From: Bacteroidota bacterium
Lineage (GTDB): Bacteria > Bacteroidota > Bacteroidia > NS11-12g > UBA955
Reading direction: 5' to 3'
NCBI GenBank assembly: GCA_040386935.1
Contig: JAZKEQ010000006.1
Location: 42,482-106,481 of the forward strand
Length of the DNA stretch: 64,000 bases
Shown piece after piece: positions 33,129-55,940 of this stretch (within the stretch, counting starts at the first letter, position 1; every line of letters begins with the position of its first letter). The notes beneath the pieces are model-generated. The model did no database searches, was not told where the DNA came from, and saw only the letters and a list, made by a program, of their open reading frames with translations. The position numbers and the translations under genes were made by a program.

Positions 33129-33446
33129 CTACAGTAAATGGTAGTACCAATTATTGCCTCGTTCAAGGTTAATCGATATTTCAATATAAAGATATAAAAT
33201 GGCAAGGATAAGAGCAATTATATTTAGTATTAGTAAAAATAAACTTCGATTATTTTTCTTCATTAAAGCACGTGATGCTGTTAATAAAGAACCATTGATA
33301 ATCATACTAATGAACATAGGGATAATAGAGTAGTATGGTCCACCAAAATGCTTAAAATGCCATATGGTCCTCGGTATAAAGTAAATGTTCAATAATATGA
33401 GCAATATTGAAATTAGAAGGTTTATTTTACTGATGGTTTGTCTCAT
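33129..33446 (-). CDS. Small membrane protein (array cargo)
   Basis: Three hydrophobic segments; ATG at 33446, longer ORF runs through the repeat. Confidence 0.55.
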   Translation of the reverse strand: MRQTISKINLLISILLILLNIYFIPRTIWHFKHFGGPYYSIIPMFISMIINGSLLTASRALMKKNNRSLFLLILNIIALILAILYLYIEISINLERGNNWYYHLL

Positions 33447-33461
33447 ATAGGTGTTTTTTTT

Positions 33462-33514
33462 ACCTCTGTTGGTGTTGTGCCTGGCCTCCCGAAGTTTCAG
33501 GACCAGCAATGGCG
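33462..33514. repeat. Hairpin repeat, collapsed A/B hybrid
   Basis: ACCTCTGTTGGTG...CCCGAAGTTTCAGGACCAGCAATGGCG. Confidence 0.75.
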
Positions 33515-33544
33515 AAAGTTGAAGCTACTTGTTGTTTTATTTTG

Positions 33545-34177
33545 TTACATCCCAATAATATTTTCTAATTCTTGGTCATCATAATTACCATAGATACCAC
33601 CTTTGGCTCTTAAATATTCTAAAATTGTTCTGTCGTCAAAATTATGAGCTTCTTTTATTCCTTCACTAATTGTTTTAATGTAATTTGTACTCGGTTTTGT
33701 AAAAGGTTGCAAGTCATTTTCATTTGTCAAAGTAAAAACAGGATAACCATGTTGTTCGCCTAAGTATAATATATTGCCATACCACGATGGTCGCTTAAAT
33801 ATAAAAGAGCAGTCACTAATCGCTTTGTCGAAGTCTATTGTTAATTCAGTTTTTGTGTTTGTTTCTTGTCTTGCTATATCAATTAATTGACCTTTTGTAA
33901 TCAAATACATCCTCCCAATAGTAGAAGCTTGTGGTTCAAACACAGTCCTAATAAATGCAATACCACCATTGTCCCAATTACTCGAAGCTTTGGAAAAATA
34001 AAGTTCAGAAGAAATATAGCAGTCTTCATTTTCAGCTGGTAAAGTCTTGTCACTACAACCTTCATAAATTGTTTTTGCTCCTTTAGGTTGTCCACCTTTG
34101 ATGTAGCAAAGAAAACGTTCTTCTAAAATGTTTGAGCCATAACAAGCATACCAAACTTTATCTTGTAGATTTGTCAT
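33545..34177 (-). CDS. Hypothetical protein, GGCT-like N-terminal motif
   Basis: VWYACYGSN..RF.CYI.GG.P. Confidence 0.65.
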   Translation of the reverse strand: MTNLQDKVWYACYGSNILEERFLCYIKGGQPKGAKTIYEGCSDKTLPAENEDCYISSELYFSKASSNWDNGGIAFIRTVFEPQASTIGRMYLITKGQLIDIARQETNTKTELTIDFDKAISDCSFIFKRPSWYGNILYLGEQHGYPVFTLTNENDLQPFTKPSTNYIKTISEGIKEAHNFDDRTILEYLRAKGGIYGNYDDQELENIIGM

Positions 34178-34193
34178 GAAAATTAATTTTTTT

Positions 34194-34238
34194 GTTGCTG
34201 TTAGTGTTTTGTGACATGTATGTATTGTCTCTAACAGC
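34194..34238. repeat. Hairpin repeat, A arm only
   Basis: GCTGTTAG...CTAACAGC, abutting stop codon of the TPR gene. Confidence 0.75.
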
Positions 34239-35972
34239 TTACAATATCCTCGAAGTAGAAATTTTAATATCAGCGTATTTCCAGGCGGCTTCAAAACGTT
34301 TTTTTGTTTCAGCGTATTTTATTTTGTCGCCCAGTTTTTCATATACATTCATTAGTCCCCTTAATGCCCATCCGTTTTCGCGGAAGGTAATCAAATCTTC
34401 ATCATACACCTTTTTAGCCTCCTGATATTTTCCGGCATCTATCAATACTGCACCCAAATGATGGCGAACAGAAAAGAACCAATCCGGTGGCTCATCATAG
34501 TTGAGTTTATCTTCCATTACAACGGCATCTGTAAGAAGTATAATGGCTTTTGAATAATTGTTTTCTTTTGCATTGATTTCTCCTTCCAATACTTGTGAGG
34601 CTATTGAACACAAATCATACACACTGTTGATACCCCAAATGGTCAGTGTTTTAATAGCAGTATCAGTCATTATTTTTTTCATGGCAGCCAGATGTTCCCT
34701 TGCTTTAGCCGGTTTATTTTGTGAGAGCAAAGCCATGCCCTGTGCATAATGCCAGATGACTGATGGATATTTCAAATCCTTGTCGGGGGCGGGCGAACCA
34801 AGAATAGTAGACCATAAGCCAAGTTTTGTTTCTGTATACCATGGTATGGCATAATAATGTTGCAAGGTGGCCCAGGCAGGGTCGCGCATTAATTTTTTAT
34901 GGGCATGATCAGCTGTTTTATAAGCGCCTAGCATGGCTACTTTGCTTTCACCGCAAAGCGTGGCACAAGCAGAAATGAAGTGATAATTGTGCGGGTAATA
35001 GGCGAGGGGATACACGCCTTGTGCATGGCAGGTTTCCACATACTGGCTATCTACGAGTACGGCTTTTTGATTGGCTGTAACGCCATCGTGATACCGTCCG
35101 GTTCTTATATAGGTGTGCGAAGGCATGTGCACCAGGTGACCTGATCCGGGCACCAAATCGCGCAACAAATCTGCACTGGCCATGGCATCTTCGGCATGTA
35201 GCGACATTTCTACCGCATGTATGTAAAAATGATTGGCCCCTGCATGCCTCGGTTCCATCTGCAAACATTTTTCGAGCACTGCTAATATTTCGGGTGTCCA
35301 TGGCTGAACAGTGCCGTCTTTATTCCATAAATTCCATGGATGCAAATCCATCAACGATTCTGCAAATAGGGAAGCAATAGTAACATCCTGAGCATATTTT
35401 TTGTAAACCTTTCGCATGGCTGCCGAATAGGCTATATCGAGCTCTGCACGGGTTATAGTGGTGTCGTTTGAATAGCGGTGTGTTAATGCCTCAATTAGAT
35501 CCTTTTCTTTCTGAGTGCATGAGGCCGACAATGATTTGGCCTTTTGCACAGCATCATAGGCACGAATGAAATTATCCTGCTCCATGCCGGCATTGTAATT
35601 CGGCCCCAACACATAACCATAGCCCCACCAGCACATGGCACATGCTGAATCCTGGCGTGCTGCTTCATAAAACGAACGCGCAGCTTCGGCATGATTAAAA
35701 GCGAATGACAACATGAGCCCTTGGTCGAAATATTGTTGGGCTTCCTTGTTTTTGGTTGATATGGCAAAATGCATCCCTCCCAGACCATCAAACAGGGGTG
35801 CTTTCTTACCCGAAGTATACCATGCTGTATCTAAAATCTCAGGCGCACAACAACCGTATTGGGTAGATGCTTCATCACCTTTAGCCCCTTGTTGTTTATT
35901 GCCTGTTTTCTGTTGGCATGAGGTGAAAATAAAAATAGATAGCCCAATTAAAGTGAAGCGTAGTTTTTTCAT
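34239..35972 (-). CDS. TPR-containing lipoprotein
   Basis: FTSC lipobox; FDQGL..FNH.EA, LGPNYN, HLVHMPSH, YDEPP.W. Confidence 0.8.
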   Translation of the reverse strand: MKKLRFTLIGLSIFIFTSCQQKTGNKQQGAKGDEASTQYGCCAPEILDTAWYTSGKKAPLFDGLGGMHFAISTKNKEAQQYFDQGLMLSFAFNHAEAARSFYEAARQDSACAMCWWGYGYVLGPNYNAGMEQDNFIRAYDAVQKAKSLSASCTQKEKDLIEALTHRYSNDTTITRAELDIAYSAAMRKVYKKYAQDVTIASLFAESLMDLHPWNLWNKDGTVQPWTPEILAVLEKCLQMEPRHAGANHFYIHAVEMSLHAEDAMASADLLRDLVPGSGHLVHMPSHTYIRTGRYHDGVTANQKAVLVDSQYVETCHAQGVYPLAYYPHNYHFISACATLCGESKVAMLGAYKTADHAHKKLMRDPAWATLQHYYAIPWYTETKLGLWSTILGSPAPDKDLKYPSVIWHYAQGMALLSQNKPAKAREHLAAMKKIMTDTAIKTLTIWGINSVYDLCSIASQVLEGEINAKENNYSKAIILLTDAVVMEDKLNYDEPPDWFFSVRHHLGAVLIDAGKYQEAKKVYDEDLITFRENGWALRGLMNVYEKLGDKIKYAETKKRFEAAWKYADIKISTSRIL

Positions 35973-36071
35973 TTGAATGATGGGTTTAATTACACAAATT
36001 AAAATAAAAATATTGGAAAGTTTCTTTGTTTACAATATCGGGAAGTTATTGTGTGTATTGAAGCTGTGATG

Positions 36072-36190
36072 TTTGCCACTCATGTACCCAGCTTGCAGGA
36101 GGTAAGCATAAGCCACGCTCTGGTTTTCAATACTCCGGAATACGGCATGGAGAATACGGTAAAGAAGTATTTGAATCAGTCGGGGTTGGG
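36072..36190 (+). pseudogene. pdxJ: Diverged duplicate of the pdxJ 3' end
   Basis: Ungapped match to 33002-33120; VPSLQEVSISHALVFNTPEYGMENTVKKYLNQ vs VPGLLEVSIGHALVCDALEYGMANTVKMYLNQ. Confidence 0.88.
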
Positions 36191-36298
36191 TGAGATTAGT
36201 GTTTTGCAGCTTGAAGAAGTAGCTGATTCAGTTGCGTAGGTTTCTTTTATCAATGAATTAATAATTTCTTGGTGGTGACGTTATACCAGAATATCTTA

Positions 36299-39200
36299 TC
36301 ATAGCAAATATCTTCGTTTGTGGTTTTTGCCTATTTTTTCAATTATTGTTTTTAAGTTATTATGTTCAACACCTGTGGTGCTTTTTAACAATGTCAGCAT
36401 ACGCTCAGTAACAAATTTTTCAGTTGCAATATCAGCTAATATACTACCCGTAAAATAATGATCCATTTTCTTTGATTTAAGTTCTCCTAATAGATATGAT
36501 AAAGTTTCTTCTGTAAAATCCTCTAATTTTAGGTCATTCATTCTTCTTAAAATTATTTGACTTAATATTTTACGGTATTTAGATTTCGGATTATTAAACT
36601 CTGAAATAAATTCTTGACGTTTGTCTTTAGAGATATATGAAGTAATTACCATTGGCACCCTATTTGTAAACATCCATTCATCCCTCTTTGATTTAATATA
36701 TTCATCAAACCATTCAAGCCACCAATTTATAGGGCCAATGTCGAAAATCAGATTGCTTTCATTGTCGTTATAAATAACCAAACAATCACATAAATAATAT
36801 GCTAATTTTAAATTTTTGAGTTTCAAAAGCTGTACGAATAATTTTTCTTGACCAATCCAGTTTAATTTATCCATATGAGATAGTAACTCAAAGTTTTCCT
36901 TTTGTAGGTCTTTCGAGTCTAGTTTTAATAAATCTTCTAGAGCTTGATATACTGAAGTATGTTCTTTTGAAGTAGAAATAGAATAAAACAGCGCAGCTTT
37001 TAAAACTCCACTACTTTTAATTATATTTTCCACTGCATATTTTTTTAAATCTCCTCTTTTTAAAAAAATATTATATAATGAACTTAATGCCCAATCTGAA
37101 ATTTCACTTTTATTTTTTTTAACAATTGTGATTAAAGATTTTATGTGTTTAGGTTTGAAAATGGAATAATCAATATTGTCATCCTCTTTAGAAAAACTAA
37201 GTATAAAATAAATTTCTACAACAACTTTATCTATCCCTGATGACAAAAGTTCTATACAAATCTGAAGCCCTTCATTATTATTGCAATCTCGTAAGTAGTG
37301 ACACAAAACATCAAGTTGTACTAGTTGTTCCTTAGGTTTTAAGTTTTTATTATAGAAGGCGGAAATAACTTTTGAAGGGCTGAAACCATACATTATATAA
37401 CCTAATGCTGAATCAAAACCGCCATATTCTTTTGTTATTCCAGTATCAAATTTCACTTGTACTTTTTTGCAAAGAACTAAAAGGCTAGGAATATCATCTT
37501 CTGTTACATACCTCTTAATGCTTAGTCCTATTCTAGTACAAAAATTATAGTCATCACAAGAATTGACTAATAAATCAAATGCTTCTGTTTTGAAATTATC
37601 TCCAAGCAATTCTATCATACAAGCAGCCGCTGCCCCACCCAACATATTACCCTTATTAATTATTTGCGTCAGCGTGTTGACATGTGACTCTGCTAGAGGT
37701 AAGCTGTGGCTTATTTTATCTCCAATTTGACTTTGCCATACAAAATCTTTAGAAGTTGCAGTTTCAATTTCATTTAAAAGACGCTCAACAATTTCTTCTG
37801 TATTTTCTTCTAAATACTTTATAGCAGATAATGCTAACTCAAAGTCTATATCTATAACGGTATTTAAAAACTTTTCAGCATTCTCTTTTTTTAATAAACT
37901 TAAACAGAGAAATAGTGCCTGATCCCAACGTCTGAAACTTAGTTTTTTCGTTAGAATATTATTATTTTCCACAAAGAGTTCTGAAAGTCGTTTTGCTGCC
38001 AAATATTCTGTTACAGATTGGTGGAAAAAGCAAATTCTTTCATTAATAATAGGGATCAGAAAATCTTGACTTACCATCCAGTTTATTATATCTAAACTTG
38101 TGATAGTGGTATTTGGAGTTTTCTTTAATTCTAAATCAATGTGTCGTTTTAATATTTCTATTTTAAATGCTTCCTCACCATTGTCAAGAGCTTCCATAGC
38201 AACTATAGATAATGAATCTAAAAGATTAATGTTGACATTAAATCGGTCATTAAGTCTTTTATTTATTAAGTTTACTAAACTCAGGTAGATTTTCTGAGGG
38301 TTAGTTTCAGCTTCAATTTCGAATTTATTCTCAAATATGAGTTTATAGAAAAAAGGTTTTTGCAATAAAGCTATTATTTCATTTCTAAACAAACCTTTTA
38401 GTTCGATTTGATTTTGTGATAAGCTTGTTTTAATAAAATCTTCTTCAATAGAATCTAGGTTAAATCCTGGAAACTCTAAATCTTCCAATCCATCAATAGT
38501 TCGAGATGAAATTACTATTGATAAATTATATTTTTCCAATAGGTTTGAAAAATCAGAATTCCAAGTTTTTGACTCAATGTATTCCTTTGGAATTTCATTG
38601 AAAGCATCTAGATATAATTTAACTTTTAGGGTTGAGCACAAAAGTGCAAAATTTATTCTCGTTGGAATGTTTTGCTCAATTAATTTGACAAGATTGCCTT
38701 CGTAAAGTTTTAAGTCTACATAAATCGGAACTATAGTTTCATTGATTCTTATTGAATCATCAATGCAATCTTTACTTAATTTTTTTGATAGTCTAGCTAT
38801 ACTAGCTTTAAGTGAATAACTTTTACCTCCTCCTGGTAGTCCTATGAGAATAATTTTATCCGGCCCTTTATCAAGTAGTTCTTCAATTGCTGCTTCATAA
38901 AATCGAAAATTAAATTTTCCTTTTTTGTTATCTTCAATTGGATGCACAACAAGTGGAAGATGTAATTTGGAAGTTTCAAAACTAAAATACTTTGCTGAAT
39001 GCCTGTTTAAACTAAGTATAAATTCTGAATTTAAAATAGATGTTGGACTAGTTGTATTCGTTTCGGGAATTTTTAAATCATCTAAGAGCTTAAGGATTGG
39101 AGAGTGATCTCTTTTTCCATTTGGTTTTGGAATTGTTTGGTAATCTATTAAGTGGATTCCAAAATTTCTACGCCAATAATCTTTTTCCTGTTCACCAATA

Positions 39201-39898
39201 TCAGACATAATTGCATAATGATCTCTTGCCCCTCCTTTGTACGTATTAATTAATAAATCTTTCAAATACAAGAAATCAGGATCCCTCAACCCAAATCCAA
39301 TATATACTATCGGCCTACTTAGCATAAGAGCTTTTGTGGTTTCCATTGCATGAAGAAGTTCACCTCCTGTATTTAAAGCCCTGTATTGCTCTCTTGTTAA
39401 TATAATACTATCGGAATTTTCTGCATCTCCATGAAGCTTAAAAAGAAAGTTGTTTGCTCTTGCACCCACTATTTCAGCTGTTTCTGTTAGCTGTGTATTT
39501 ATGACAGTTCGAAAATACGTACCATGCTTCCATTTTTGAAAGCTTAATTCTAATAACTTATCATAGTTTGTAGTTATGTAGCAGGTTGGACCCAATTCTA
39601 CAATTTTATTATGAATATCGTGGGGAGTTGCGGTTCCTAGACGGCTTACTTTTCTAATGAATTGTGCAAAGTGCGGTTTAGTTAACTTGTCAAAACCATA
39701 ACTTGCAGCTTGTAAAAGATCTCCTCTTTTTAATTCTTGCTCTGTTAAGGTTGCATCCAAGCCACTTTCCTTTATAAAATCTATAAGTTCTTGAATTAAA
39801 CCAGTCCAAGATGGTAGTCCTGACCAAAGAGAGACTCCTGAACCTATAAATATGACAGTATCTTCTTGTCTGAGTGTTTTTTTTAAATTTTCAATCAT
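36299..39898 (-). CDS. SIR2-like domain fused to NACHT/STAND NTPase (putative antiphage NLR-like protein)
   Basis: FIGSGVS, ITTNYD, KLHGD, IGFGLRDP; Walker A GLPGGGKS, Walker B LYLDAFNE, FFHQSVTEYLAA. Confidence 0.85.
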   Translation of the reverse strand: MIENLKKTLRQEDTVIFIGSGVSLWSGLPSWTGLIQELIDFIKESGLDATLTEQELKRGDLLQAASYGFDKLTKPHFAQFIRKVSRLGTATPHDIHNKIVELGPTCYITTNYDKLLELSFQKWKHGTYFRTVINTQLTETAEIVGARANNFLFKLHGDAENSDSIILTREQYRALNTGGELLHAMETTKALMLSRPIVYIGFGLRDPDFLYLKDLLINTYKGGARDHYAIMSDIGEQEKDYWRRNFGIHLIDYQTIPKPNGKRDHSPILKLLDDLKIPETNTTSPTSILNSEFILSLNRHSAKYFSFETSKLHLPLVVHPIEDNKKGKFNFRFYEAAIEELLDKGPDKIILIGLPGGGKSYSLKASIARLSKKLSKDCIDDSIRINETIVPIYVDLKLYEGNLVKLIEQNIPTRINFALLCSTLKVKLYLDAFNEIPKEYIESKTWNSDFSNLLEKYNLSIVISSRTIDGLEDLEFPGFNLDSIEEDFIKTSLSQNQIELKGLFRNEIIALLQKPFFYKLIFENKFEIEAETNPQKIYLSLVNLINKRLNDRFNVNINLLDSLSIVAMEALDNGEEAFKIEILKRHIDLELKKTPNTTITSLDIINWMVSQDFLIPIINERICFFHQSVTEYLAAKRLSELFVENNNILTKKLSFRRWDQALFLCLSLLKKENAEKFLNTVIDIDFELALSAIKYLEENTEEIVERLLNEIETATSKDFVWQSQIGDKISHSLPLAESHVNTLTQIINKGNMLGGAAAACMIELLGDNFKTEAFDLLVNSCDDYNFCTRIGLSIKRYVTEDDIPSLLVLCKKVQVKFDTGITKEYGGFDSALGYIMYGFSPSKVISAFYNKNLKPKEQLVQLDVLCHYLRDCNNNEGLQICIELLSSGIDKVVVEIYFILSFSKEDDNIDYSIFKPKHIKSLITIVKKNKSEISDWALSSLYNIFLKRGDLKKYAVENIIKSSGVLKAALFYSISTSKEHTSVYQALEDLLKLDSKDLQKENFELLSHMDKLNWIGQEKLFVQLLKLKNLKLAYYLCDCLVIYNDNESNLIFDIGPINWWLEWFDEYIKSKRDEWMFTNRVPMVITSYISKDKRQEFISEFNNPKSKYRKILSQIILRRMNDLKLEDFTEETLSYLLGELKSKKMDHYFTGSILADIATEKFVTERMLTLLKSTTGVEHNNLKTIIEKIGKNHKRRYLL

Positions 39899-39998
39899 AT
39901 AAATAAGTTTGTGTTAAATGAAATTACTAAAAACTAGCACATGATTTCATTCAAACTAAGGTGGAAATATCTTTGTTGAATTTTATTTTCAGAATCCC

Positions 39999-40043
39999 CG
40001 CAATATACCCAAAATCCCCATTATCCCAATTTTTCTACAAAAA
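39999..40043 (-). promoter_or_regulatory. Repeated promoter module (type C) upstream of SIR2-NACHT
   Basis: Minus strand TTG-N19-TATATTGC; near-identical copy at 54334. Confidence 0.7.
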
Positions 40044-40225
40044 ACCTGCAAGCACTAAACATCTATTTTATTGCAACTAGGGGCAATTTGATAAAGTTTC
40101 TCTGCTATTTTATTGCGCTAGGCCCTTATTTGGTAAACCTTAGCAGCTATTTGGGAGTGGTGAGGGGTGTTAAGGAAAGGCCGTTCCCTTTCCCGGTAAT
40201 TGCGAGGGCTTATATTTTTTTCAAA

Positions 40226-40435
40226 ACAGTCACTATTGTTGGCTTAGTAGTCAATTACATTAGTAAGGAAGTAAGTATTGTTAGCATGGTCGTCAAAAAT
40301 GTTAGCAAGGAACTCACTCTTGTTAGCATGGTAGTCACTATTGTTGGCATGGGAGTCAGTTAGGTTGGTAGGGTAGTCAATAATGGTGGCAGGGTCGTCA
40401 ATATTGTTGGCGTGGTAGTAAAAAATGTTTGCCAA
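40226..40435 (+). repeat. Ten degenerate tandem 21-bp units, consensus about GTAGTCAnTATTGTTRGCAWG
   Basis: Units start at 40226, 40247, 40268 ... 40415 with no indels. Confidence 0.85.
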
Positions 40436-40486
40436 ACACAATATTATGCAAAATAGTGGTTGTATAATGAACTAACTCTACTGATT

Positions 40487-40867
40487 ATGATAGGATTTTA
40501 TGTAAAAGAATTTATGCGAATGAAAGGCCATTCTAAGCCCCGTGTGTTCACCCTTCGCAAATTAGAAATTGGGCAAACGGCTGCCTACAACATTATGTTT
40601 AACAGGGCCAAAGAAATTAAACTCAAAGACCTGGAGACCCTGTGCATGTACCTGAACTGCACCCCTAACGACATACTGAACTATACCCCCGATAACCGTG
40701 TGCTACACAAGGGGCATGAGCTATTCAAACTGATGAAAAACCCTAATCCGCAATATCCGGCAGGATGGATGGTGGCCCTGGGCCCCGAAAAACTACTGGA
40801 AGCCAGCGATTACCTGCGCCAACTGGCCATGAAACAAAATGAGGAAAACGAGAAGAAGGAGAGGTGA
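40487..40867 (+). CDS. Cro/C1-type HTH DNA-binding protein
   Basis: IKLKDLETLC.YLNCTPNDIL; only plus-strand gene inside the array. Confidence 0.82.
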   Translation: MIGFYVKEFMRMKGHSKPRVFTLRKLEIGQTAAYNIMFNRAKEIKLKDLETLCMYLNCTPNDILNYTPDNRVLHKGHELFKLMKNPNPQYPAGWMVALGPEKLLEASDYLRQLAMKQNEENEKKER

Positions 40868-40870
40868 GGG

Positions 40871-40908
40871 GGCGCTGTTAGTCCCGAAACATCGTGAACA
40901 GCTTATAC
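40871..40908. repeat. Hairpin repeat, A arm plus spacer start
   Basis: GGCGCTGTTAGTCCCGAAACATCGTGAACAGCTTATAC. Confidence 0.78.
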
Positions 40909-41543: not shown

Positions 41544-41555
41544 ACTCGTTTTATT

Positions 41556-41657
41556 ACAGCTGTTTGTACGAAACTTCGGGAACAGCTTATACTACTCCAA
41601 ACATAAGTAATTATTTTTCACTTTTATGTTTCTTGTTACCGCACGGGTAGGGTATTA
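41556..41657. repeat. Hairpin repeat, A arm plus long spacer
   Basis: CGAAACTTCGGGAACAGCTTATACTACTCCAAACATAAG...GGGTAGGGTATTA. Confidence 0.9.
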
Positions 41658-41664
41658 AAATTCG

Positions 41665-42075: not shown

Positions 42076-42094
42076 AAGGGCTATTTTTGTTTTT

Positions 42095-42142
42095 GCCGCT
42101 GTTGGTGTTTTGTGCTCAGCTTGAGGGTTGGTCACCAACAGC
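42095..42142. repeat. Hairpin repeat, A arm with long loop
   Basis: GCCGCTGTTGGTG...CACCAACAGC. Confidence 0.88.
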
Positions 42143-42208
42143 TTTTAAATGGTCAGGGTTATGTGCATTCGGTATAAGTTTTCCTACTATTTTTGATTCC
42201 ATGGGTTT

Positions 42209-42478
42209 TTAGGCTTCCAATGCTATAATTTTTTCAGCAATATTCAAACTATGTTCCATATTGCTCGACAGGCCCATTCTATCTGTTACTACTAAGTCAA
42301 GAAATTTAGCTATTTCTGTTTTGGTAGCACCTTTTATTTTCAACTGATAAACTTGAGGTAAATAGCCGTAGTATTCATCTCTCGCATTTTTTTTATCATC
42401 GTTCACTCCTATCGGATCCCAATCATTCCAAAGGATTTCATCAATTAATTTATAAAGTTTAGAGTTTTTAGTAATCAT
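42209..42478 (-). CDS. Small DUF1871-like protein
   Basis: ILWNDWDPIGV..RDEY..Y. Confidence 0.65.
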   Translation of the reverse strand: MITKNSKLYKLIDEILWNDWDPIGVNDDKKNARDEYYGYLPQVYQLKIKGATKTEIAKFLDLVVTDRMGLSSNMEHSLNIAEKIIALEA

Positions 42479-42492
42479 TTTATTCGATTGTT

Positions 42493-42595
42493 TTACACTA
42501 CTCCAAACTTAAGTATTTATTTTTCACTTTTGTATTTCTTGTTACCGTATGGGTAGGGTATTATTGTTCCCGAAGGTTCAGGACCAACATTGATG
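42493..42595. repeat. Hairpin repeat, long spacer plus B arm
   Basis: TTACACTACTCCAAACTTAAG...ATTGTTCCCGAAGGTTCAGGACCAACA. Confidence 0.9.
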
Positions 42596-42608
42596 AATAT
42601 GCCATTTG

Positions 42609-43181
42609 TCAGCGAGTGTTTTTTAGAGTCTCATCGCACTTATCAAAAATTATTTTACTTTTCACAAATGGAATTTCGCATTGGTAAACAGTGTCTCGTT
42701 CTTCAGTAATTTCAACTTTTTTGATGAAAATAGGTATAAAGCCATATTCACTCAGTTCATATTTCATGAGCGGTCCACCTGCAAACCCTTGGTCGCGTTG
42801 GTATTCTATTTTATACTTATTGATGTTCCATTTGTTTTCAACAGTTAGTGAACCTGATAATACATCCATTACCATAAAAAAACTAAGTATAAGGAAAAGT
42901 AGTCCGGAAATTATAGCCGCTGAAATGATTTTTGGTGTTTTTGCCTCAATTTGTCTTGAATATAATGCGTAAGCACTACCTAGCCCCATAAGCCCTAATA
43001 ATGGATAAACCCATGAGGCGATATATGAATAACCAAATAAGATGGGAGAGAACAAAATAAGCGATATTATTAAAGTGTACACTATCGTTTTTTTTGTCGA
43101 CATATAGTCGAACGCCAGTCCTAATAATGGGAAGGCAAATAGGATAAAAAGTTGTTTTCCATGTTCAAATAACCAAATCAT
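42609..43181 (-). CDS. Hypothetical membrane protein (array cargo)
   Basis: Four TM segments; QGFAGGP. Confidence 0.65.
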   Translation of the reverse strand: MIWLFEHGKQLFILFAFPLLGLAFDYMSTKKTIVYTLIISLILFSPILFGYSYIASWVYPLLGLMGLGSAYALYSRQIEAKTPKIISAAIISGLLFLILSFFMVMDVLSGSLTVENKWNINKYKIEYQRDQGFAGGPLMKYELSEYGFIPIFIKKVEITEERDTVYQCEIPFVKSKIIFDKCDETLKNTR

Positions 43182-43204
43182 TGTTGTGTAATATTAAATG
43201 TTTT

Positions 43205-43313
43205 GTCGCTGCCAGTCTCGAAACTTAGGGAACAGCATATACTACTCCAAACATAAGTATTTATTTTTCAATTTTGAATTATTGTCCCCGAAGGTATGTT
43301 ATCAATAATGGCG
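43205..43313. repeat. Hairpin repeat, complete short-spacer variant
   Basis: A arm, CCAAACATAAG spacer, CCGAAGGTATGT..CAATAATGGCG. Confidence 0.88.
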
Positions 43314-43350
43314 AAATCACCCGGCCTAACGTGTAGCCCTTGTTATGCTC

Positions 43351-43947
43351 TTATTTTTCTGTCATTCTACCCAATCTGTTAATTTTTATAGTCTTAACAA
43401 AGTGATTGAATGTATCCATTATCATTTCTTTAGCACCTATTCTTTCTCGATAATCTACATGGTCAAAAGCGATAGTATTATTATTAATTATATTTTTATT
43501 AATTGTATAAGCTCTACCATTATCATACATGGTGGATATGCCAATGTAGTAGGTGTCTATTAATTTTGATGTTGAATCGTGTGTACAAAGAAACATTTGC
43601 TCGGACGTACTGGTATTTGCCAATATGGTGACTGTTATCCCTTTTCCCGGCTTCATATTAACCTTGTTTGCCATTGTTATTCTTCTTTCCTTTACAGTAT
43701 CAAGAATACCGGGATAATATTTGTCATAATCAAAATTGACTACACCTTCTTCCGGTAGGTTTTCAACTCCGCCATTTACAAATGAGGGTTGCCCGTTCAA
43801 TGGTTTTTTTGTTGAGTCGAGATTAATAAGTTGACTTTTTTTTAATGATTCAATTTGTGAGGAATCATTGCTATTAATTGAGCGGTCATTACTTATGTTA
43901 CATCCCATGAGTAGGAGGAGAGGAGCTAAGATATAGAGTGTTTTCAT
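43351..43947 (-). CDS. Hypothetical lipoprotein (array cargo)
   Basis: LMGC lipobox. Confidence 0.65.
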   Translation of the reverse strand: MKTLYILAPLLLLMGCNISNDRSINSNDSSQIESLKKSQLINLDSTKKPLNGQPSFVNGGVENLPEEGVVNFDYDKYYPGILDTVKERRITMANKVNMKPGKGITVTILANTSTSEQMFLCTHDSTSKLIDTYYIGISTMYDNGRAYTINKNIINNNTIAFDHVDYRERIGAKEMIMDTFNHFVKTIKINRLGRMTEK

Positions 43948-43954
43948 GGTTTAA

Positions 43955-43988
43955 TTATTGTTGCTGAAGTTTAGTGGCTAATAATAGC
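43955..43988. repeat. Hairpin repeat, degenerate B arm
   Basis: TTATTGTTGCTGAAGTTTAGTGGCTAATAATAGC. Confidence 0.55.
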
Positions 43989-43992
43989 TTAA

Positions 43993-44565: not shown

Positions 44566-44596
44566 TTTGCTAGCTTGCAATTTATGAATATTTTTT

Positions 44597-44651
44597 ATCG
44601 CTATTGGTGTTTTTTACCCATTCTTGCAAAATTTCTGGGCCAACAATGGCG
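44597..44651. repeat. Hairpin repeat, collapsed A/B hybrid
   Basis: ATCGCTATTGGTG...GGGCCAACAATGGCG. Confidence 0.75.
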
Positions 44652-44691
44652 ATATTACTCAAAAAAAATGAATAAGCTTTCAGAATTTTTT

Positions 44692-44843
44692 GCCGCTGTT
44701 TGTGTTTTTGTGCCTTGCCTGTGTGTTGGTCACCAACAGCACTTACCACCTCAAACATAAGTATTTATTTTTCAATTTTGTGTTTCTTGTAACCGTATGG
44801 GTAGGGTCGTATTGTTCCCGAAGGTTCGGGACCAATAATGGTT
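44692..44843. repeat. Hairpin repeat, complete long form
   Basis: GCCGCTGTT...CACCAACAGC, spacer, ATTGTTCCCGAAGGTTCGGGACCAATAATGG. Confidence 0.92.
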
Positions 44844-44863
44844 GAAATTTCTTAAACACTCAC

Positions 44864-49869: not shown

Positions 49870-49890
49870 ATGGTGTCTGATTTTTATTGC

Positions 49891-49941
49891 TATTGTTGCT
49901 GATTAGCGAATGTGCCAGGAGTTATGAAAGCAATAATGGCG
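49891..49941. repeat. Hairpin repeat, degenerate B arm
   Basis: TATTGTTG...CAATAATGGCG. Confidence 0.6.
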
Positions 49942-50021
49942 AAATAGTTAAGTTACCACTAAGCCGTTTACAGGGCAAATTAACTAAGCGGTATGAATAG
50001 TCAACTCTGCCTTGCTGTTTT

Positions 50022-51425: not shown

Positions 51426-51489
51426 TTCTTTTTTTAATTAAACAATTTCAATTTGTTTTTGTTTATGGCTGTCTTTTTTTAAAATGCAT

Positions 51490-51589
51490 TTATACTACCC
51501 CAAACGTAAGCATTTATTTGTACTGCTATGTTGCTTGTACTGTATGGGTAGGGGTGGTTGTTCCCGAAGGTTAGGGGCCAACAATGGCG
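51490..51589. repeat. Hairpin repeat, spacer plus B arm
   Basis: CCAAACGTAAG...GGGTAGGG...TGTTCCCGAAGGTTAGGGGCCAACAATGGCG. Confidence 0.88.
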
Positions 51590-51592
51590 GAT

Positions 51593-51988
51593 TTACGAAG
51601 TTGGCAATTGTGTGCCAATTGACCACATGTTGCCTGCAAAGTCTTTAAATGTGGCACGTCTGTCAGGGTCGCCTTCGCGTTGTTTGGGTTGTTCAATTAT
51701 TTCACAACCGGCTTTGATAGCTTTGTCAAATATTTCATCAACATTGGTAACATACACATGCATTACCAAAGGAACTGGAGGAAATTTGTCGGAAGAATTT
51801 CCCAGCATAATAACAGAATCGTCTATTTGTATTTCAGCATGCATAATAGTGCCATCCGGCATATCATACCGTCTCAATTCTTTTGCATCAAAGATGGTTT
51901 GCATCAAAGCAATGAATTTTTCAGCACCATCTACTATAAAGTATGGTGAAACTGAATTGTAATTGGTTGGCTTAAAGTCTTTATTCAT
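51593..51988 (-). CDS. VOC family protein
   Basis: SVSPYF, HAEIQI.DS, KDFAGN.W. Confidence 0.88.
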   Translation of the reverse strand: MNKDFKPTNYNSVSPYFIVDGAEKFIALMQTIFDAKELRRYDMPDGTIMHAEIQIDDSVIMLGNSSDKFPPVPLVMHVYVTNVDEIFDKAIKAGCEIIEQPKQREGDPDRRATFKDFAGNMWSIGTQLPTS

Positions 51989-52018
51989 ATTTTTAGGGTT
52001 ACTTGTTTGTTGTTTATG

Positions 52019-52127
52019 TTTGCTGTTGGATCCGAAACTTCGGGAACAGCTTACACTACTCCAAACTTAAGTATTTATTTTTCAATTTTGTGTTATTGTT
52101 GCCGAAGGTATGTGACCAACAATGGCG
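52019..52127. repeat. Hairpin repeat, complete short-spacer variant
   Basis: GCTGTTGGATCCGAAACTTCGGGAACAGC...CCGAAGGTATGTGACCAACAATGGCG. Confidence 0.92.
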
Positions 52128-52159
52128 GAATAAATACTGCTATAATATAGTGGCCCTAT

Positions 52160-52930
52160 TCATCTTTGTGGCTGGTTTGCTTTTATAGGTTTCGTGAACT
52201 TTATTCGATCTCCTGTCCAGGGTGTTAAATTACCTGAACTATCCATAAATGAAAACTCAACTTCATAATTGTCACTGTCGTCAAAGTCAAATGCACCAGA
52301 ACACATCCCATGTCCAACACATACATTGTCACCACCTATAGAAATGTAGTAAGTTGTTTCCAGTCCGGTTTTTAAATTTTTTACCGTTGTCTTTACAATT
52401 AGGTCTGAACTGTCTGTTGCGGGATTACTAAATACAACGTGAATTGAAGGGCCGCAACCGTAATGGATAAGTGTCTTTTTTAATTCTTTTGGAATGCCGG
52501 TAAGTATTGGCTTTATGGTATCCCTTCCGGCAACAACTGTATATGTCACCGGCTCATATTTCTGAGTTATTTTATTATACTTATCAAAACTTTCATATTC
52601 CGGCAAACTGTCAATATGCATTGTGTATTCAAGTCCTACTTCCAATTCTTTTTCGGGTTTTAAAACTGCTTGTGTTAAATAAAATTGTCCAACACAAATT
52701 TCGATTACATTCAATTTAATTTTCTTGTTCCCGTTTTTAAGATAAATATTGTTTTTTTTATTAAGGTTTAAAATTATGCCCTGACTTTCAGCATAGCCGT
52801 CAAGAATAAAAATTGAATTTTGTTTGATTGTTGGTCCACTTGGGAAAATCCAAAGTCCTGTTCCCCTACAATCAGCAAGTAAGGAAACAGACCAAAATAG
52901 TCCGATTAATATTGTAAGTAGATGTTTCAT
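52160..52930 (-). CDS. Hypothetical secreted protein (array cargo)
   Basis: Signal peptide; YGCGP, GHGMCSGAF. Confidence 0.7.
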   Translation of the reverse strand: MKHLLTILIGLFWSVSLLADCRGTGLWIFPSGPTIKQNSIFILDGYAESQGIILNLNKKNNIYLKNGNKKIKLNVIEICVGQFYLTQAVLKPEKELEVGLEYTMHIDSLPEYESFDKYNKITQKYEPVTYTVVAGRDTIKPILTGIPKELKKTLIHYGCGPSIHVVFSNPATDSSDLIVKTTVKNLKTGLETTYYISIGGDNVCVGHGMCSGAFDFDDSDNYEVEFSFMDSSGNLTPWTGDRIKFTKPIKANQPQR

Positions 52931-53108
52931 GATGTGTGCATTGTGATATTAACTATCGAGTGTTTCTCCAACTTGGAAAGAATTACGAAGGTTTTTTATT
53001 TTACTTATTCTACTATGCAATATACCAAAATTTTACAATAACTCCATTTTTATATAAGCCATATCACTCTCCCTATTACTTATCTGCAGTTATGTGCAGC
53101 TCTTCTTA

Positions 53109-54269
53109 TCATTGTTTAATAACCTTAAATGTTTTTTGGTCAATGGTTATAAAGTAAATGCCATTTTCAAACTGTGAAAAATCAATGCTTAAAGAGTTAG
53201 TATCTGATGATTTGCCTGTCAAAATAGTTTGTCCTTGCAATGTCTGAACAGTATACTTTTTATCAAATAAATTACCGGGGGAATGAATATTGACGACCGA
53301 AAATGTGGGGTTTGGATAAATTGAAAAATCGCTGTTGGCTTTAATATCATTGATGCCTGAAGTAACTGCAGATGTGAGCATATAGGTCCATACCGAATTG
53401 TTTATTGCGCTGAATTTAGTGGTTGTATTGTGATAAAGAAGTGCAATTCCGGGTGCTTGATTGGTATATAAACAATGTGACTTACTGTAAGGAGTGCTTG
53501 AAATATCTACATTGATGGTGTCGTATAAGGGGTAAATGCCAAGACCTTTAAGGTTCGTTAATTGTTTGTTAAATGCCACTATTTCATCTGAAATATTGAG
53601 ATAGGCAAAGTGCTTATTCATGGCAGTAATACCTGAAGTCCTTAACCAATTGGCAGCATTAGAATAATAGGTGCTGTAATCATTGGGGCTTGAAAACATA
53701 AGCACTCTTTCTACATCATTGAATTTAGCAAAGTAACAAGCATGTCCACCCCCTTGCGAATGCCCGCCAACGGCTATTTTAGACCAGTTGAGTGTAGTCG
53801 GGTTAATTAAATATTGATTCCAGTTTTGTGTAGGAAAGGTAGTGTTCAAATAATGGATCAACTTAAGGATTCTGGTATAGATGCAATTCAAAGTATCAAC
53901 CGTTACATCAGGACTTAATGGTGTGCCATAGCAAACTTCTTGTCTATATTTATTGAAAACCATGCTGTCAGTACTGTTGGCCAAGCTTGCAGCTGCTACT
54001 GAATTAGGATACGAAAGGTTGATGACGTCATAGCCAAGTTTTCCGGCAAAATTGCTAATGGTCTGGTAAGTTGAAGTATTGCTACCTGTTCCGCCAATAA
54101 ATAGGAAGAGTTTATTAATAGTCGTGGTCGTATTTCTAACTACCATATTGCTGTCTTGAACGGCAGAATAACTAGTGTCTGTCTGAATAGGTTTTACATA
54201 GAATGTATTAATTTGTGAAAAGCAGGTGCTTGTGGTCGCAAATAAAATAATTGTAAAAATGGTTTTCAT
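53109..54269 (-). CDS. Alpha/beta hydrolase-fold protein with T9SS type A CTD
   Basis: GHSQG nucleophile elbow; YPNPT..GIYF..KVIKQ. Confidence 0.82.
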   Translation of the reverse strand: MKTIFTIILFATTSTCFSQINTFYVKPIQTDTSYSAVQDSNMVVRNTTTTINKLFLFIGGTGSNTSTYQTISNFAGKLGYDVINLSYPNSVAAASLANSTDSMVFNKYRQEVCYGTPLSPDVTVDTLNCIYTRILKLIHYLNTTFPTQNWNQYLINPTTLNWSKIAVGGHSQGGGHACYFAKFNDVERVLMFSSPNDYSTYYSNAANWLRTSGITAMNKHFAYLNISDEIVAFNKQLTNLKGLGIYPLYDTINVDISSTPYSKSHCLYTNQAPGIALLYHNTTTKFSAINNSVWTYMLTSAVTSGINDIKANSDFSIYPNPTFSVVNIHSPGNLFDKKYTVQTLQGQTILTGKSSDTNSLSIDFSQFENGIYFITIDQKTFKVIKQ

Positions 54270-54333
54270 TGAGTCGTTTTTTATGCTTGGGCCTTACTTA
54301 CATATAGTCATGTTTTTTCTTCCTATATCCTCA

Positions 54334-54378
54334 CGCAATATACCCAAAATCGCAATTATCCCAATTCTCCTTCAAAAG
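54334..54378 (-). promoter_or_regulatory. Repeated promoter module (type C)
   Basis: CGCAATATACCCAAAATC..ATTATCCCAATT matches 39999; minus strand TTG-N19-TATATTGC. Confidence 0.7.
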
Positions 54379-54400
54379 ATTACCGGTATTAATCGGCTGT

Positions 54401-55039
54401 TTATTTCACTCTCACAAACGTTTCGTTGTCGCTAAAGCCGCCATTTTTGATGAATGCTTTGAACTGTTTTTTGGTGGGTGTAAACTGGTATTGTGAAACA
54501 GTGTCATGGGGTGTTTCGGTTATTTCTTTCAGATTGTCAATGTCTGTTGGTACAGCAATACTGCTTATTGTCAATTGCCCTTTTGATAATTCCATTTTTT
54601 TGACTTGCCAGCTCTCCACATTATAGCGGTTGTTAAGGAAATAATACCCCTTGAATTTTCTAACAACATTGTCATCATTCATTTCAAACAGTGTTTCAAT
54701 GTAATGAATGTGCGCGACTAAACTGTCGCCAACACGCTTTATTGGGGTCTTTTCATTTATTCTTACATCTATCAGGGTATCACCCGAAATTCTGGAATTA
54801 CTGTCCAATTGATTGGGATGCAGGGTGTAATCGTAGTCGTAAATCTTTTGAATAATGTTGTTGTCAATTGTAAGTGTTGAATTATCCAGCAGACTTAGGT
54901 AGTGTCCCTGCAATCGCTTGGGAAATTCCGATAAATTATCAGTGTTTGCCGGTTGCGGCTCATTAAACGTAACCGGTGGTTGGCAGGCCATCAGGCTGAT
55001 TAAAAAGACGACTACAGTTGTTAATTGAAGTTTTCTCAT
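54401..55039 (-). CDS. Hypothetical lipoprotein (array cargo)
   Basis: LMAC lipobox; F.EPQP, KFKGYYFLN. Confidence 0.7.
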   Translation of the reverse strand: MRKLQLTTVVVFLISLMACQPPVTFNEPQPANTDNLSEFPKRLQGHYLSLLDNSTLTIDNNIIQKIYDYDYTLHPNQLDSNSRISGDTLIDVRINEKTPIKRVGDSLVAHIHYIETLFEMNDDNVVRKFKGYYFLNNRYNVESWQVKKMELSKGQLTISSIAVPTDIDNLKEITETPHDTVSQYQFTPTKKQFKAFIKNGGFSDNETFVRVK

Positions 55040-55182
55040 GGGTTTGTTGGCTTTGTGGTGGAACTTAGATGGGCTCATTTTCCGATGTAACGGACCTTGG
55101 GTGCTAAAAGTATATTGGTCTTTATATTTTCAACCAACGTTAGCTATTTACCGATAAACGATAGGCGAATTGGTTATTGAAG

Positions 55183-55212
55183 ATTCTTGCCGAAGTTTTG
55201 GGTCCAACTAAT
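55183..55212. repeat. Degenerate B arm overlapping the end of the YhcG-like fragment
   Basis: TTGCCGAAGTTTTGGGTCCAACTAAT resembles TTCCCGAAGGTTCGGGACCAACAAT. Confidence 0.5.
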
Positions 55213-55269
55213 TTCTCTCACCAGTGGTGAGAGTTTTGGAAAGTCTTTGTATGACTCATAAAACTGTTT
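55195..55269 (-). pseudogene. Internal fragment of a YhcG/DUF1016-like gene
   Basis: Translates KQFYESYKDFPKLSPLVREISWTQN; no start or stop; family recognised by eye. Confidence 0.75.
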
Positions 55270-55272
55270 TTT

Positions 55273-55424
55273 GCCGCTGTTGGTCCCGAAACTTCGGGAA
55301 CAGCTTTTACCACCTCAAACTTAAGTATTTATTTTTCACTTTTATATTTCTTGTAACCGTATGGGTAGGTTGTTATTGTTGGTGAGCCACTACGCGGGCT
55401 AAACGCGAACACACAACAATGGCG
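55273..55424. repeat. Hairpin repeat, complete long form
   Basis: GCCGCTGTTGGTCCCGAAACTTCGGGAACAGC, spacer, ATTGTTGG...CAACAATGGCG. Confidence 0.92.
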
Positions 55425-55425
55425 A

Positions 55426-55491
55426 AAAACTTGGTAAACCTGCTTGCATTTTAAAGTGGTCAAATTCCACCACTTTAAAATTCGGATTATT
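55426..55491 (-). pseudogene. Internal fragment of a KilA-N-like gene
   Basis: Translates NNPNFKVVEFDHFKMQAGLPSF; fills the gap between two repeats. Confidence 0.75.
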
Positions 55492-55493
55492 TT

Positions 55494-55525
55494 GCCGCTG
55501 TTGGACCCGAAACCTCGGGAACAGT
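55494..55525. repeat. Hairpin repeat, A arm (last copy seen)
   Basis: GCCGCTGTTGGACCCGAAACCTCGGGAACAG. Confidence 0.88.
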
Positions 55526-55547
55526 TTGCAATTGCAAAAAATCTTTT

Positions 55548-55940
55548 CTAACGTCCCCTATACAGCTCGTTATATTCTTTTACATGATGGGGGAATTCCT
55601 CTTCAAAGAAAGGATAAGGCACACCTTCTATGGTAATTTCAAATTCATTACTGTCCATACCGCTGATTTGATTGCCCATGCCTTTGATTTCTATGCCCTG
55701 CTCATTTTTAACAACTAAACTGTTGATGTTTTCGGTAAATAAGAGCTTTTGTTCAGGGAAATCAGTCACCAGTTCAATGTTGTTTTTTGTGCAATACGAT
55801 TGAAAGAAGTCGTAACCCGAAGTAATCGTTATGAAATGGATGATCCCAAAAACAACGCCCATGGGTGCATCTGCTTTTTCTAATTCAGTTGTGCCAATTT
55901 TCTGGTCATCAAGCAATATGTCGTAAATTTTCTTTTTCAT
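55548..55940 (-). CDS. Hypothetical protein
   Basis: D.PMGVVFG, YPFF.EEFPHH. Confidence 0.65.
   Translation of the reverse strand: MKKKIYDILLDDQKIGTTELEKADAPMGVVFGIIHFITITSGYDFFQSYCTKNNIELVTDFPEQKLLFTENINSLVVKNEQGIEIKGMGNQISGMDSNEFEITIEGVPYPFFEEEFPHHVKEYNELYRGR

Follow-up and report, generated by a model that had tools for sequence, protein, structure and literature searches.

A promoter-like doublet of REP hairpins in an accessory island of a Bacteroidota bacterium

Introduction

Repetitive extragenic palindromic sequences (REPs) occur as single hairpins or as inverted doublets (REPINs) and have as partners small transposases of the HUH/Y1 superfamily, known as REP-associated tyrosine transposases (RAYTs, also called TnpA-REP), a partnership which, to our knowledge, has been studied almost only in Proteobacteria. 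REPs are usually lineage-specific, and in the usual REPIN the hairpins are conserved while the spacer between them is variable. Here, a REPIN-like element is described from a Bacteroidota bacterium, in a stretch of 64,000 nucleotides (nt), referred to as the window, which corresponds to positions 42482-106481 of contig JAZKEQ010000006.1 (C6:42482-106481). The assembly measures 3.4 Mb in 81 contigs and has a completeness of 97.85%. Positions given without a contig are those of the window; G000 denotes this assembly, other G numbers the genomes of relatives, C a contig and L a locus stretch, while the genus comparison set consisted of 32 other genomes (33 with G000). In the window, copies of the element separate small genes which mostly run in one direction, an arrangement that an earlier note, made from the letters of the DNA, had interpreted as an integron-like capture system. 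From the evidence presented below, it is rather probable, with appreciable room for doubt, that the element belongs to an orphaned REPIN family, a local variant of which would carry a promoter and serve as an expression module for acquired genes.

For the Bacteroidetes, the description of TnpA-REP subclass 2.6 (RAYT group 5) by Quentin et al. (PMC6006769) gives the motifs NH[LIV]H, WQ and YIH[QN]NP and a length of about 179 amino acids (aa), with 'atypical secondary structures' flanking the gene and copies of them elsewhere in the genome; other parts of the REP/REPIN-RAYT literature are found in PMC3116915 and PMC3337134. The element resembles these systems in being a short extragenic palindromic repeat present as singlets and inverted doublets, and in that the relatives' hairpins flank a single HUH/Y1 gene of about 180 aa with NH[LIV]H and YIH[QN]NP. 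Moreover, the tetranucleotide GTAG (or CGTC) is missing at the hairpin foot, whose flanks are GCC and GGC(A), in agreement with the atypical structures which that paper reports for subclass 2.6. On the other hand, the spacer here measures 60-150 nt and holds a conserved box of the -7 type, the copies are crowded in an accessory island and co-oriented with its genes, and no cognate RAYT was found in this assembly, so that G000 does not have the REPtron arrangement. In addition, conservation of the hairpin sequence goes beyond single families and reaches even neighbouring phyla.

Hairpins and palindromes of other kinds also offer points of comparison: relatives of IS200/IS605 move whatever stands between two end hairpins, the attC sites of integrons follow the pattern RYYYAAC...GTTRRRY, and for the Correia repeat enclosed elements of Neisseria we know of no HUH partner. 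IS200/IS605 likewise belong with the HUH/Y1 superfamily and have subterminal hairpins recognised on single-stranded DNA, but no transposase lies between the hairpins here. The Correia elements, as characterised in PMC2649163, are similar in being non-autonomous and intergenic, about 100-150 nt long and with inverted ends, and in a capacity, predicted for the present element, to provide adjacent transcripts with a promoter and an RNA hairpin; they differ in their unrelated sequence and phylum and in having their promoters at the ends, whereas the box predicted here is internal. Integron arrays and attC-site clusters with no integrase (CALIN), in the accounts of PMC9024848 and PMC4889954, share the one-way series of unrelated small genes and the imperfect palindromes of variable length which fold as single strands. 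Nevertheless, the present locus has neither IntI nor attI, its arm polarity is GTT...AAC instead of AAC...GTT (the lack of attC-type ends had already been read correctly in the earlier note), and the same hairpins are scattered between core genes of relatives. Instead of promoterless cassettes that share one Pc promoter, elements with a putative promoter box are found, seven of the window copies carrying their own TAWGTTTG box. Finally, the rAID-1 arrays of Bacteroidales, as presented in bioRxiv 10.1101/471110, come from the same phylum and combine small genes, skewed G+C content and repetitive intergenic sequence; in contrast, there is no XerD-like recombinase at this array (no PF00589 gene on C6), and general Pfam and NCBIfam scans, among which the immunity profiles of the rAID-1 paper were not included, assigned none of the cargo to an immunity family.

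Structure and distribution of the element

Repeat finding, together with a reading of every intergenic stretch, gave 15 full or partial copies in 33462-55531, all intergenic and in one orientation, close to the roughly 16 copies that had been reported before. These comprise 4 full doublets, 3 partial doublets with a spacer and 8 single, collapsed or truncated hairpins. The layout proposed in the earlier note, with hairpin A, spacer and hairpin B on the plus strand and the two arms as inverted copies, was borne out by the copy alignment, hairpin A being approximately the reverse complement of hairpin B. Read in gene direction, the element starts with hairpin B ([CGCC]ATTGTTGG-loop-(CC)AACAAT), continues with an optional mid block (ACCCTACCCATACGGTTACAAGAAA) and then AAAAGTGAAAAATAAATACTTAWGTTTGGAGTAGT, and ends with hairpin A (RTAAGCTGTT(GG)-loop-CCAACAGC[GGCAAAA]), after which comes the next start codon. 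The foot of the hairpins can be written as RYTGTTGG...CCAACARY, its outer sides being extended by a GCC/GGC pair which forms only across the whole doublet. Three covarying foot types, all Watson-Crick paired, were found in the recognisable members of G000 (GT/AC in 7, AT/AT in 5 and GC/GC in 4). The distance from foot to foot within a hairpin goes from 4-5 nt up to about 30 nt, with predicted stem folding of -5 to -20 kcal/mol.

Two classes of loop were distinguished, and the mid block is present or absent depending on the copy. No two copies are identical, many of them being truncated or collapsed, and copy-to-copy similarity ends at the feet, so that segmental duplication is not their origin. 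As regards the marks of a miniature inverted-repeat element (MITE), to which the Correia elements belong, the inverted end GCC[A/G]TTGTTGG, of 11 bp, is present, and no consistent target-site duplication was seen in the flanks of 10 copies. The non-coding strand folds more stably in 23 of 30 hairpins (-406 versus -357 kcal/mol in total), an asymmetry which is uninformative, since this strand is G+T-rich here. A replication-strand cause of the common orientation was also considered and rejected, because the element strand does not track the local GC skew (20 copies).

An nhmmer profile built from 10 copies on 6 contigs recovered 9 of the 15 window copies, the other 6 having been found by eye or by motif, and gave 31 loci on 12 contigs in the whole genome. 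Thus, the confinement to 33.4-55.5 kb that had been claimed holds within the window but not for the genome, where about 22 further nhmmer loci lie on C1, C8, C11, C22, C23, C26, C34, C43, C68 and C76 and at C6:175. When up to 3 mismatches were allowed, a spacer motif of 24 nt had 6 matches in the window, 2 on C76 and none elsewhere in the 3.4 Mb, which is far from what chance would give.

All window copies lie on the minus strand. The full doublet at 55266-55420 contains hairpin B, mid block, a promoter-like spacer (TAAGTTTG) and hairpin A (nhmmer E 2e-26), while that at 44686-44848 combines a class-1 hairpin B with a class-2 hairpin A (E 2e-35). Two full doublets are short, one at 52012-52132, without mid block and upstream of the glyoxalase-family gene 51593-51988 (E 8e-23), and one at 43198-43318 (E 1e-20). 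Sequence reading and nhmmer also gave a copy with mid block, putative promoter box and hairpin A but no hairpin B (41548-41660), and another with hairpin B, mid block and a variant of the box (TACGTTTG) but no hairpin A (51491-51594). The third partial doublet (42494-42600) has hairpin B, mid block and the putative promoter box, and the 89-aa gene 42209-42478 starts 25 nt after this box, at the place usually taken by hairpin A. This gene separates the spacer from its own hairpin at 42091-42152, a hairpin A of class 2 with a 10-bp foot (-19.6 kcal/mol). Single hairpins A were located at 55487-55531, downstream of gene 55548-55940, and at 40868-40908, at the downstream end of a repeat-rich stretch. 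Single REPs with both outer feet lie at 44592-44656 (-15.3 kcal/mol), a copy which had been called a collapsed A/B hybrid, and at 33462-33516, upstream of a small membrane open reading frame (ORF) at 33129-33446. The remaining copies are a degenerate single REP at 49885-49950 (CGCCATTATTGC...GCAACAATAGC, from repeat search and folding), a degenerate single hairpin between two genes at 43952-43992, and a truncated hairpin at 55185-55208, whose CCAAC foot abuts a gene relic.

The hairpins and their transposase in related genomes

The pattern TGTTGGTG-N3-33-CACCAACA was found in 15 of the 33 genus genomes (14 of the 32 others), with up to 23 matches per genome and none for the reversed control. 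For GTTGTTGGTG-N4-5-CACCAACAAC, at least 120 stretches were obtained from named records of Bacteroidota, Ignavibacteria and Chlorobiota, and among the matches listed are Mucilaginibacter, Pontibacter, Rufibacter, Ferruginibacter, Chitinophagaceae, Saprospiraceae, Cytophagales, Ignavibacteria and Chlorobiota. Tight inverted doublets of the hairpins stand between core genes, for example dnaK, in G017, and the doublets of relatives have spacers of 17-22 nt.

An ORF of 173-197 aa with hairpins on both sides was present in all four of the relatives' loci inspected (G017:C34, G004:C101, G018:C34 and G010:C130). Its whole length is covered by a match to NCBIfam NF047646 ('REP-associated tyrosine transposase'; E 1.8e-19, 70 bits versus a cut-off of 80), Pfam Y1_Tnp is matched weakly with E 0.002-0.003 (18 bits, cut-off 23), and the proteins carry NHIH or NHMH together with YIH[NQF]NP. 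RAYT homologs are encoded in 13 of the 32 other genus genomes, including 9 of the 9 with at least 3 hairpin matches, and the gene is found in 10 of 14 hairpin-positive versus 3 of 18 hairpin-negative genomes. At the level of the phylum, a RAYT homolog lies within 250 nt of the hairpin in 14 of 120 loci, among the matches listed. In addition, the RAYT gene of G018 is flanked by both foot variants of G000, ATTGTTGG..CCAACAAT and GCTGTTGG..CCAACAGC.

Since the same palindrome flanks RAYT genes and the feet covary, the arms, judged from their sequence, are REP hairpins and the element is their inverted doublet, a REPIN, while the HUH/Y1 gene of the relatives appears to be a RAYT with motifs that fit subclass 2.6. 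The lead given in the earlier note, which had likened the repeats to REP doublets processed by HUH Y1 RAYTs, was therefore sound. The same hairpin was also seen in head-to-tail runs with a fixed period of 114 nt, or in triplets, in a Ferruginibacter sp. record (L073 140-391) and in L059 and L091; the family thus forms tandem clusters elsewhere in the Bacteroidota too.

The spacer as a putative promoter

The spacer is 60-150 nt long here versus 17-22 nt in the doublets of close relatives. All 9 copies that have a spacer, of which 7 lie in the window and 2 on C76, contain a TAWGTTTG box, and the 26-nt core of the spacer is the best conserved part of the element, with a mean pairwise identity of 90%. 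The box fits the sigma-A -7 consensus of Bacteroidota as given in PMC9723704. With the copies on C1 and C26, the box points at a downstream gene in 11 of 11 box-bearing copies on four contigs. Upstream of the ORFs of G000 in general (736 upstream regions), TAnnTTTG occurs 284 times in sense versus 129 times in antisense, with a peak 10-40 nt before the start, while TATAAT is unbiased (101 versus 96). Other island genes have TATATTGC-type boxes upstream.

As regards other organisms, just 2 of the 23 hairpin pairs taken from other Bacteroidota hold the box, searches for the 26-nt core gave 0 matches among 40 relatives, among 185,579 species genomes and within a metagenome collection, and BLAST of the full element against the 32 genus genomes gave only E>1e-4. 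The hairpin alone is thus shared with other genomes, the spacer being unique to G000.

Another repeat, which measures about 80 nt and contains ..TTGGGATAATNGNGATTTTGGGTATATTGCG.. on the minus strand, was noticed upstream of the SIR2-like gene (39996-40074) and upstream of gene 53109-54269 (54334-54377), as well as at C17:12570, C52:30858, C52:31623, C52:34618 and C68:17446. It holds a TAnnTTGY-type box, which resembles the SM5 motif that PMC9723704 reports for Flavobacterium psychrophilum, and the same box, TATATTGC, is met again before genes at 56-62 kb.

In the explanation which we favour, the relatives would mobilise the hairpin family with their small HUH/Y1 RAYT/TnpA-REP, the hairpin on single-stranded DNA being what the transposase binds and cuts, and doublets would have spread in this way in the past. 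An ordinary integration event at the 3' end of pdxJ would have brought in the island, and doublets would have colonised, and stayed in, the intergenic gaps of its approximately 35 kb. Here, the spacer box faces the next gene, with hairpin A in between; the doublet would provide the promoter, the mRNA would begin at its very 5' end with a stem-loop and continue with an A-rich leader, and hairpin B would close the 3' end of the upstream message. The doublet would in this manner act as a portable expression module for horizontally acquired genes, and copies in sense orientation may have been kept because they drive the downstream genes. Since the cognate RAYT was not found in the assembly and no two copies are identical, the population looks orphaned and decaying, with singlets, truncations and relics at the feet.

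Several observations weigh against this explanation. The cognate RAYT was not found in G000, either by tblastn (best E 0.025, no match at E<=1e-3) or with a four-sequence RAYT profile (only E 0.008, at C27), and mobility in G000 is therefore unsupported. The relatives' RAYT itself falls short of the curated cut-off in each of the two libraries, and it has WE in place of the WQ given in the table of subclasses of PMC6006769. The promoter, likely as it is, has been deduced from the sequence; the box stands 55-75 nt from most start codons versus the 10-40 nt usual in this genome, and no clear -33 element was seen at standard spacing. The count of 11 of 11 overstates the orientation signal, because copies within one array are not independent, and a second subtype (C6:175, C11 and C34), which lacks the exact box, lies against or behind genes, so that orientation is no rule for the whole family. 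Moreover, 9 of the 31 nhmmer loci fall within 14 kb, a clustering which exceeds what REPINs usually need and fits what an exchange of hairpin-bounded cassettes would predict. Finally, public unitig-like contigs from the sequencing run that is the likely source end at the repeats (42.5, 44.8 and 52.07 kb); the block order across the repeats consequently rests on the original assembly and has no confirmation from these contigs.

Search for an enzyme in this genome

The earlier note had supposed that the enzyme acting on the repeats is encoded elsewhere in the genome, which was not borne out for the cognate RAYT in an assembly with 97.85% completeness; at this level, a RAYT gene may have been lost in a repeat gap. 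As for the clustering near an enzyme that had been expected from a genome scan, the loci do cluster within 14 kb, but RAYT genes were found beside the hairpins in other genomes and not in this one. The match on C27 corresponds to a 198-aa RAYT-like ORF at C27:5831-6427 (L037 832-1428; NF047646 E 5e-15, partial; NHIH and YIIQNP), with a 28-nt perfect palindrome inside its coding sequence and none of the array's hairpins beside it. A palindrome inside the gene is a trait given for subclass 2.4 in the subclass descriptions of PMC6006769.

The integron integrase model TIGR02249 gave no match in G000 over its 265-bit cut-off, the two best (74 and 59 bits) being Xer-like genes on C50 and C30 in housekeeping surroundings, and only two PF00589 genes were found in the genome, neither of them on C6. 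The two Xer-like genes were discarded as the enzyme of the repeats on account of these surroundings and of the lack of any link to the repeats. The same was done with the single serine recombinase, on C34, which lies about 18 kb from the nearest element and has no link to the repeats, and with the IS200-like Y1 genes on C2 and C4, which are flanked by unrelated G+C-rich palindromes.

The accessory island and the breakpoints at the hairpin feet

By synteny, the copies lie in a strain-specific accessory island, mostly on the minus strand, which occupies 33119-64000 in the window and continues to about 68476 (C6:~110950), a length of about 35.4 kb, with pdxJ on one side and a lipoprotein gene on the other. 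The island is missing from all four relatives whose pdxJ neighbourhood was inspected (G009, G010, G042 and G007), where homologs of C6:110957-111343 begin no more than about 60 nt after pdxJ, and BLAST of the window against the 32 genus species gave conservation up to the end of pdxJ (33118) and no synteny beyond, the island genes having only scattered, non-syntenic homologs within the genus. A 110-nt stretch at the 3' end of pdxJ (33011-33120, plus strand, from repeat search) has a displaced, 79% identical direct copy on the plus strand at 36081-36190, which resembles an att scar; the pair brackets a 3-kb segment with three genes and no integrase left. This duplicate, of the sort that site-specific integration at pdxJ would leave, points to ordinary integration and shows that the island was assembled in two or more steps unrelated to the hairpins. 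Neither a direct repeat nor an element was seen at its right edge, and no integrase, recombinase or transposase gene was found in the island on reading its ORFs to both edges and by family searches.

The genes of the island are small and mostly without a Pfam or NCBIfam family, their G+C content going from 0.29 to 0.44. The 24 unrelated minus-strand genes announced in the earlier note were found as 24 ORFs in 33129-55940, of which 1 of 276 pairs is related (BLASTP E<=1e-3), but there is also one plus-strand gene inside the repeat range (HTH_26, 40460-40867). Recognised products include a 1199-aa SIR2-like protein, two Crp-like regulators, short-chain dehydrogenase/reductase (SDR), SRPBCC, glyoxalase-family and beta-lactamase-fold proteins, and a MazF-like pair.

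Two gene relics bear on the role of the hairpins. The one at 55202-55269, of 68 nt, comes from a gene that is intact in G004:C82 and G017:C11 (90-93% identity) and has a hairpin foot at each end, while that at 55426-55488, of 63 nt, comes from a gene intact in G046:C2 (92%) and lies between the outer feet of a hairpin B and a hairpin A. As the relics end exactly at hairpin feet, the feet are breakpoints. In public contigs from run X2, of another study, the sequence is 90-98% alike over 39997-40704, 42766-43720, 52097-53325, 54633-55185 and 55705-55939, and loose ends at 44841 and 55491 coincide with outer feet, for which other element copies in the X2 organism are a possible source; the X2 contigs leave 45.3-51.8 kb uncovered, a gap from which nothing is concluded. 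One contig of this type matches from 52821 down to 52097 and is then unlike for 317 nt, the match ending inside hairpin B; runs X3 and X4 gave matches to the window of 17-37 nt only. Excision joints between hairpins, the products that capture and loss of cargo would leave, were sought in public contigs and none was found: in the three joints listed (42108/42114/42115 to 52045/52048) the loop letters match C76 copies, which makes them other copies of the element and not deletions.

Alternative explanations

The idea that the hairpins are joints for gaining and losing cargo, put forward in the earlier note, keeps some support from the two relics ending at feet and from the 89-aa gene 42209-42478 inside one element, but neither a recombinase nor an excision joint speaks for it, and integron-like capture as such is an unlikely reading. 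Scatter in both orientations between core genes, which that note had named as the observation that would speak against it, was seen in part, at dnaK-type sites of relatives and on other contigs here, partly against the gene direction. A version of this idea in which a RAYT-type HUH enzyme cuts and rejoins single-stranded DNA at the feet, moving hairpin-bounded genes so that the joints of the array bring promoters, we regard as unlikely. Besides the relics of 63-68 nt and the gene between spacer and hairpin A, it would account for the mixing of hairpin classes between the arms of single doublets, for the unrelated cargo with its spread of G+C content, for the crowding of nhmmer loci in 14 kb and for the contig which leaves its match inside hairpin B, and IS200/IS605 relatives offer a precedent for mobilising content between two end hairpins. 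Against it stand the RAYT not found in the assembly, the apparent joints that proved to be other copies, the doublets between core genes of relatives, the many array genes with no element between them (45.5-49.8 and 52.9-54.4 kb), similar one-directional arrays of small genes without hairpins in relatives (L020), an island with no element at its right edge and a pdxJ att-like repeat in its left part, and the fact that in no case did one cargo gene turn up at two sites between the same hairpins. Its fullest form, an integron analogue whose RAYT-type enzyme has been lost or left unassembled and in which every joint brings a promoter, is less probable still; were it true, the relics at the feet and the gene inside the doublet would be its footprints. 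A true integron remnant, i.e. a CALIN or a rAID-1-type recombinase-associated array, would explain one-directional, small, mostly unknown genes with palindromic intergenic repeats, but is scarcely credible given the TIGR02249 scores far under cut-off, the island without a recombinase gene, arms with GTT 5' and AAC 3', the putative promoter box in each element and the rarity of complete integrons in Bacteroidetes stated in PMC9024848.

The opposite view, that of a selfish, decaying and functionless REPIN population in which the box is a passenger or due to chance and the orientation stems from local copying in the island, has a small but real chance of being correct. It agrees with the absence of identical copies, the many truncated or collapsed ones, the RAYT not found and the subtype II copies that are not gene-oriented, and an A+T-rich spacer could match an A+T-rich box by chance. 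Nevertheless, it is the 26-nt box region which is best conserved here while loops and mid block vary, the reverse of usual REPINs, all the box-bearing copies point at a gene, and similarity which stops at the feet argues against segmental duplication. The feet might also be operators of a DNA-binding regulator, for example the Cro/C1-type helix-turn-helix protein encoded at 40460-40867, as inverted feet resemble palindromic operators and a tandem array of a 21-bp unit (9.6 copies, 40228-40429, with ATTGTTGGC-like units) stands just upstream of this HTH_26 gene. This is very improbable, because a foot spacing that goes from 4-5 to about 30 nt is ill-suited to binding of duplex DNA by a dimer, the units of the genome's 12 other 21-bp arrays are unrelated, so that the motif match is probably due to chance, and the hairpin found across phyla adjoins RAYT genes instead of helix-turn-helix genes.

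Implications

Returning to the orphaned REPIN family with an expression-module variant, the RAYT subclass would gain a concrete REP, the palindrome around GTTGTTGGTG-N4-CACCAACAAC, which extends from the Bacteroidota into Ignavibacteria and Chlorobiota, although it may already stand in the per-genome REP tables that form part of PMC6006769 and no claim is made that it is unpublished. The variant doublet appears to have gained a sigma-A promoter and sits before newly acquired genes. If this promoter is real, a non-autonomous element would allow foreign genes that come without a promoter to be expressed in a phylum whose promoters are unusual and which has no Shine-Dalgarno sequences, and a compact natural part, with promoter and 5' stem-loop, would become available for Bacteroidota genetics. 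One-way gene arrays separated by palindromes are, by themselves, no evidence for an integron.

Further observations

No Rfam family reached its gathering threshold in the window, nor did ARAGORN find tRNA or tmRNA genes there, and type IX system secretion-tail domains are encoded in G000 according to the domain search. Together with the sense bias of TAnnTTTG upstream of ORFs, these domains assign the organism to the Bacteroidota. The 1199-aa ORF at 36299-39898, with an N-terminal SIR2_2 domain (E 4e-23) and a G+C content of 30% versus about 40% nearby, looks like a separately acquired anti-phage defence gene. The last genes of the island before the conserved lipoprotein gene, outside the window, are the PemK/MazF-like pair, in which a toxin ORF (E 2e-31) at C6:110108-110670 (L017 6109-6671) is overlapped by a small upstream ORF.

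On C8, orphan genes form two groups of three tandem paralogs (about 122 and about 154 aa) at C8:97-1212 and C8:4212-5628, the second group directly behind a full REPIN-like element (C8:5724-5933). No Pfam family was matched, and a tentative assignment of the second group as SUKH/SMI1 immunity proteins was not borne out.

Thirteen loci with 6-11 tandem copies of a 21-bp unit, whose sequence differs from locus to locus, were recorded in the genome: apart from the array at 40228-40429 in the window, they lie at C1:115958-116150, C8:1631-1842, C8:32446-32613, C11:2743-2990, C20:26412-26608, C23:19628-19839, C30:24321-24560, C34:10365-10557, C43:36704-36860, C52:30540-30771, C68:17606-17829 and C71:15995-16195. 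Three of them adjoin paralogous Cro/C1-type HTH_26 genes, of which the genome has 5, and four lie 7-70 nt from a REPIN-like element; these arrays may be operator arrays of small mobile modules.

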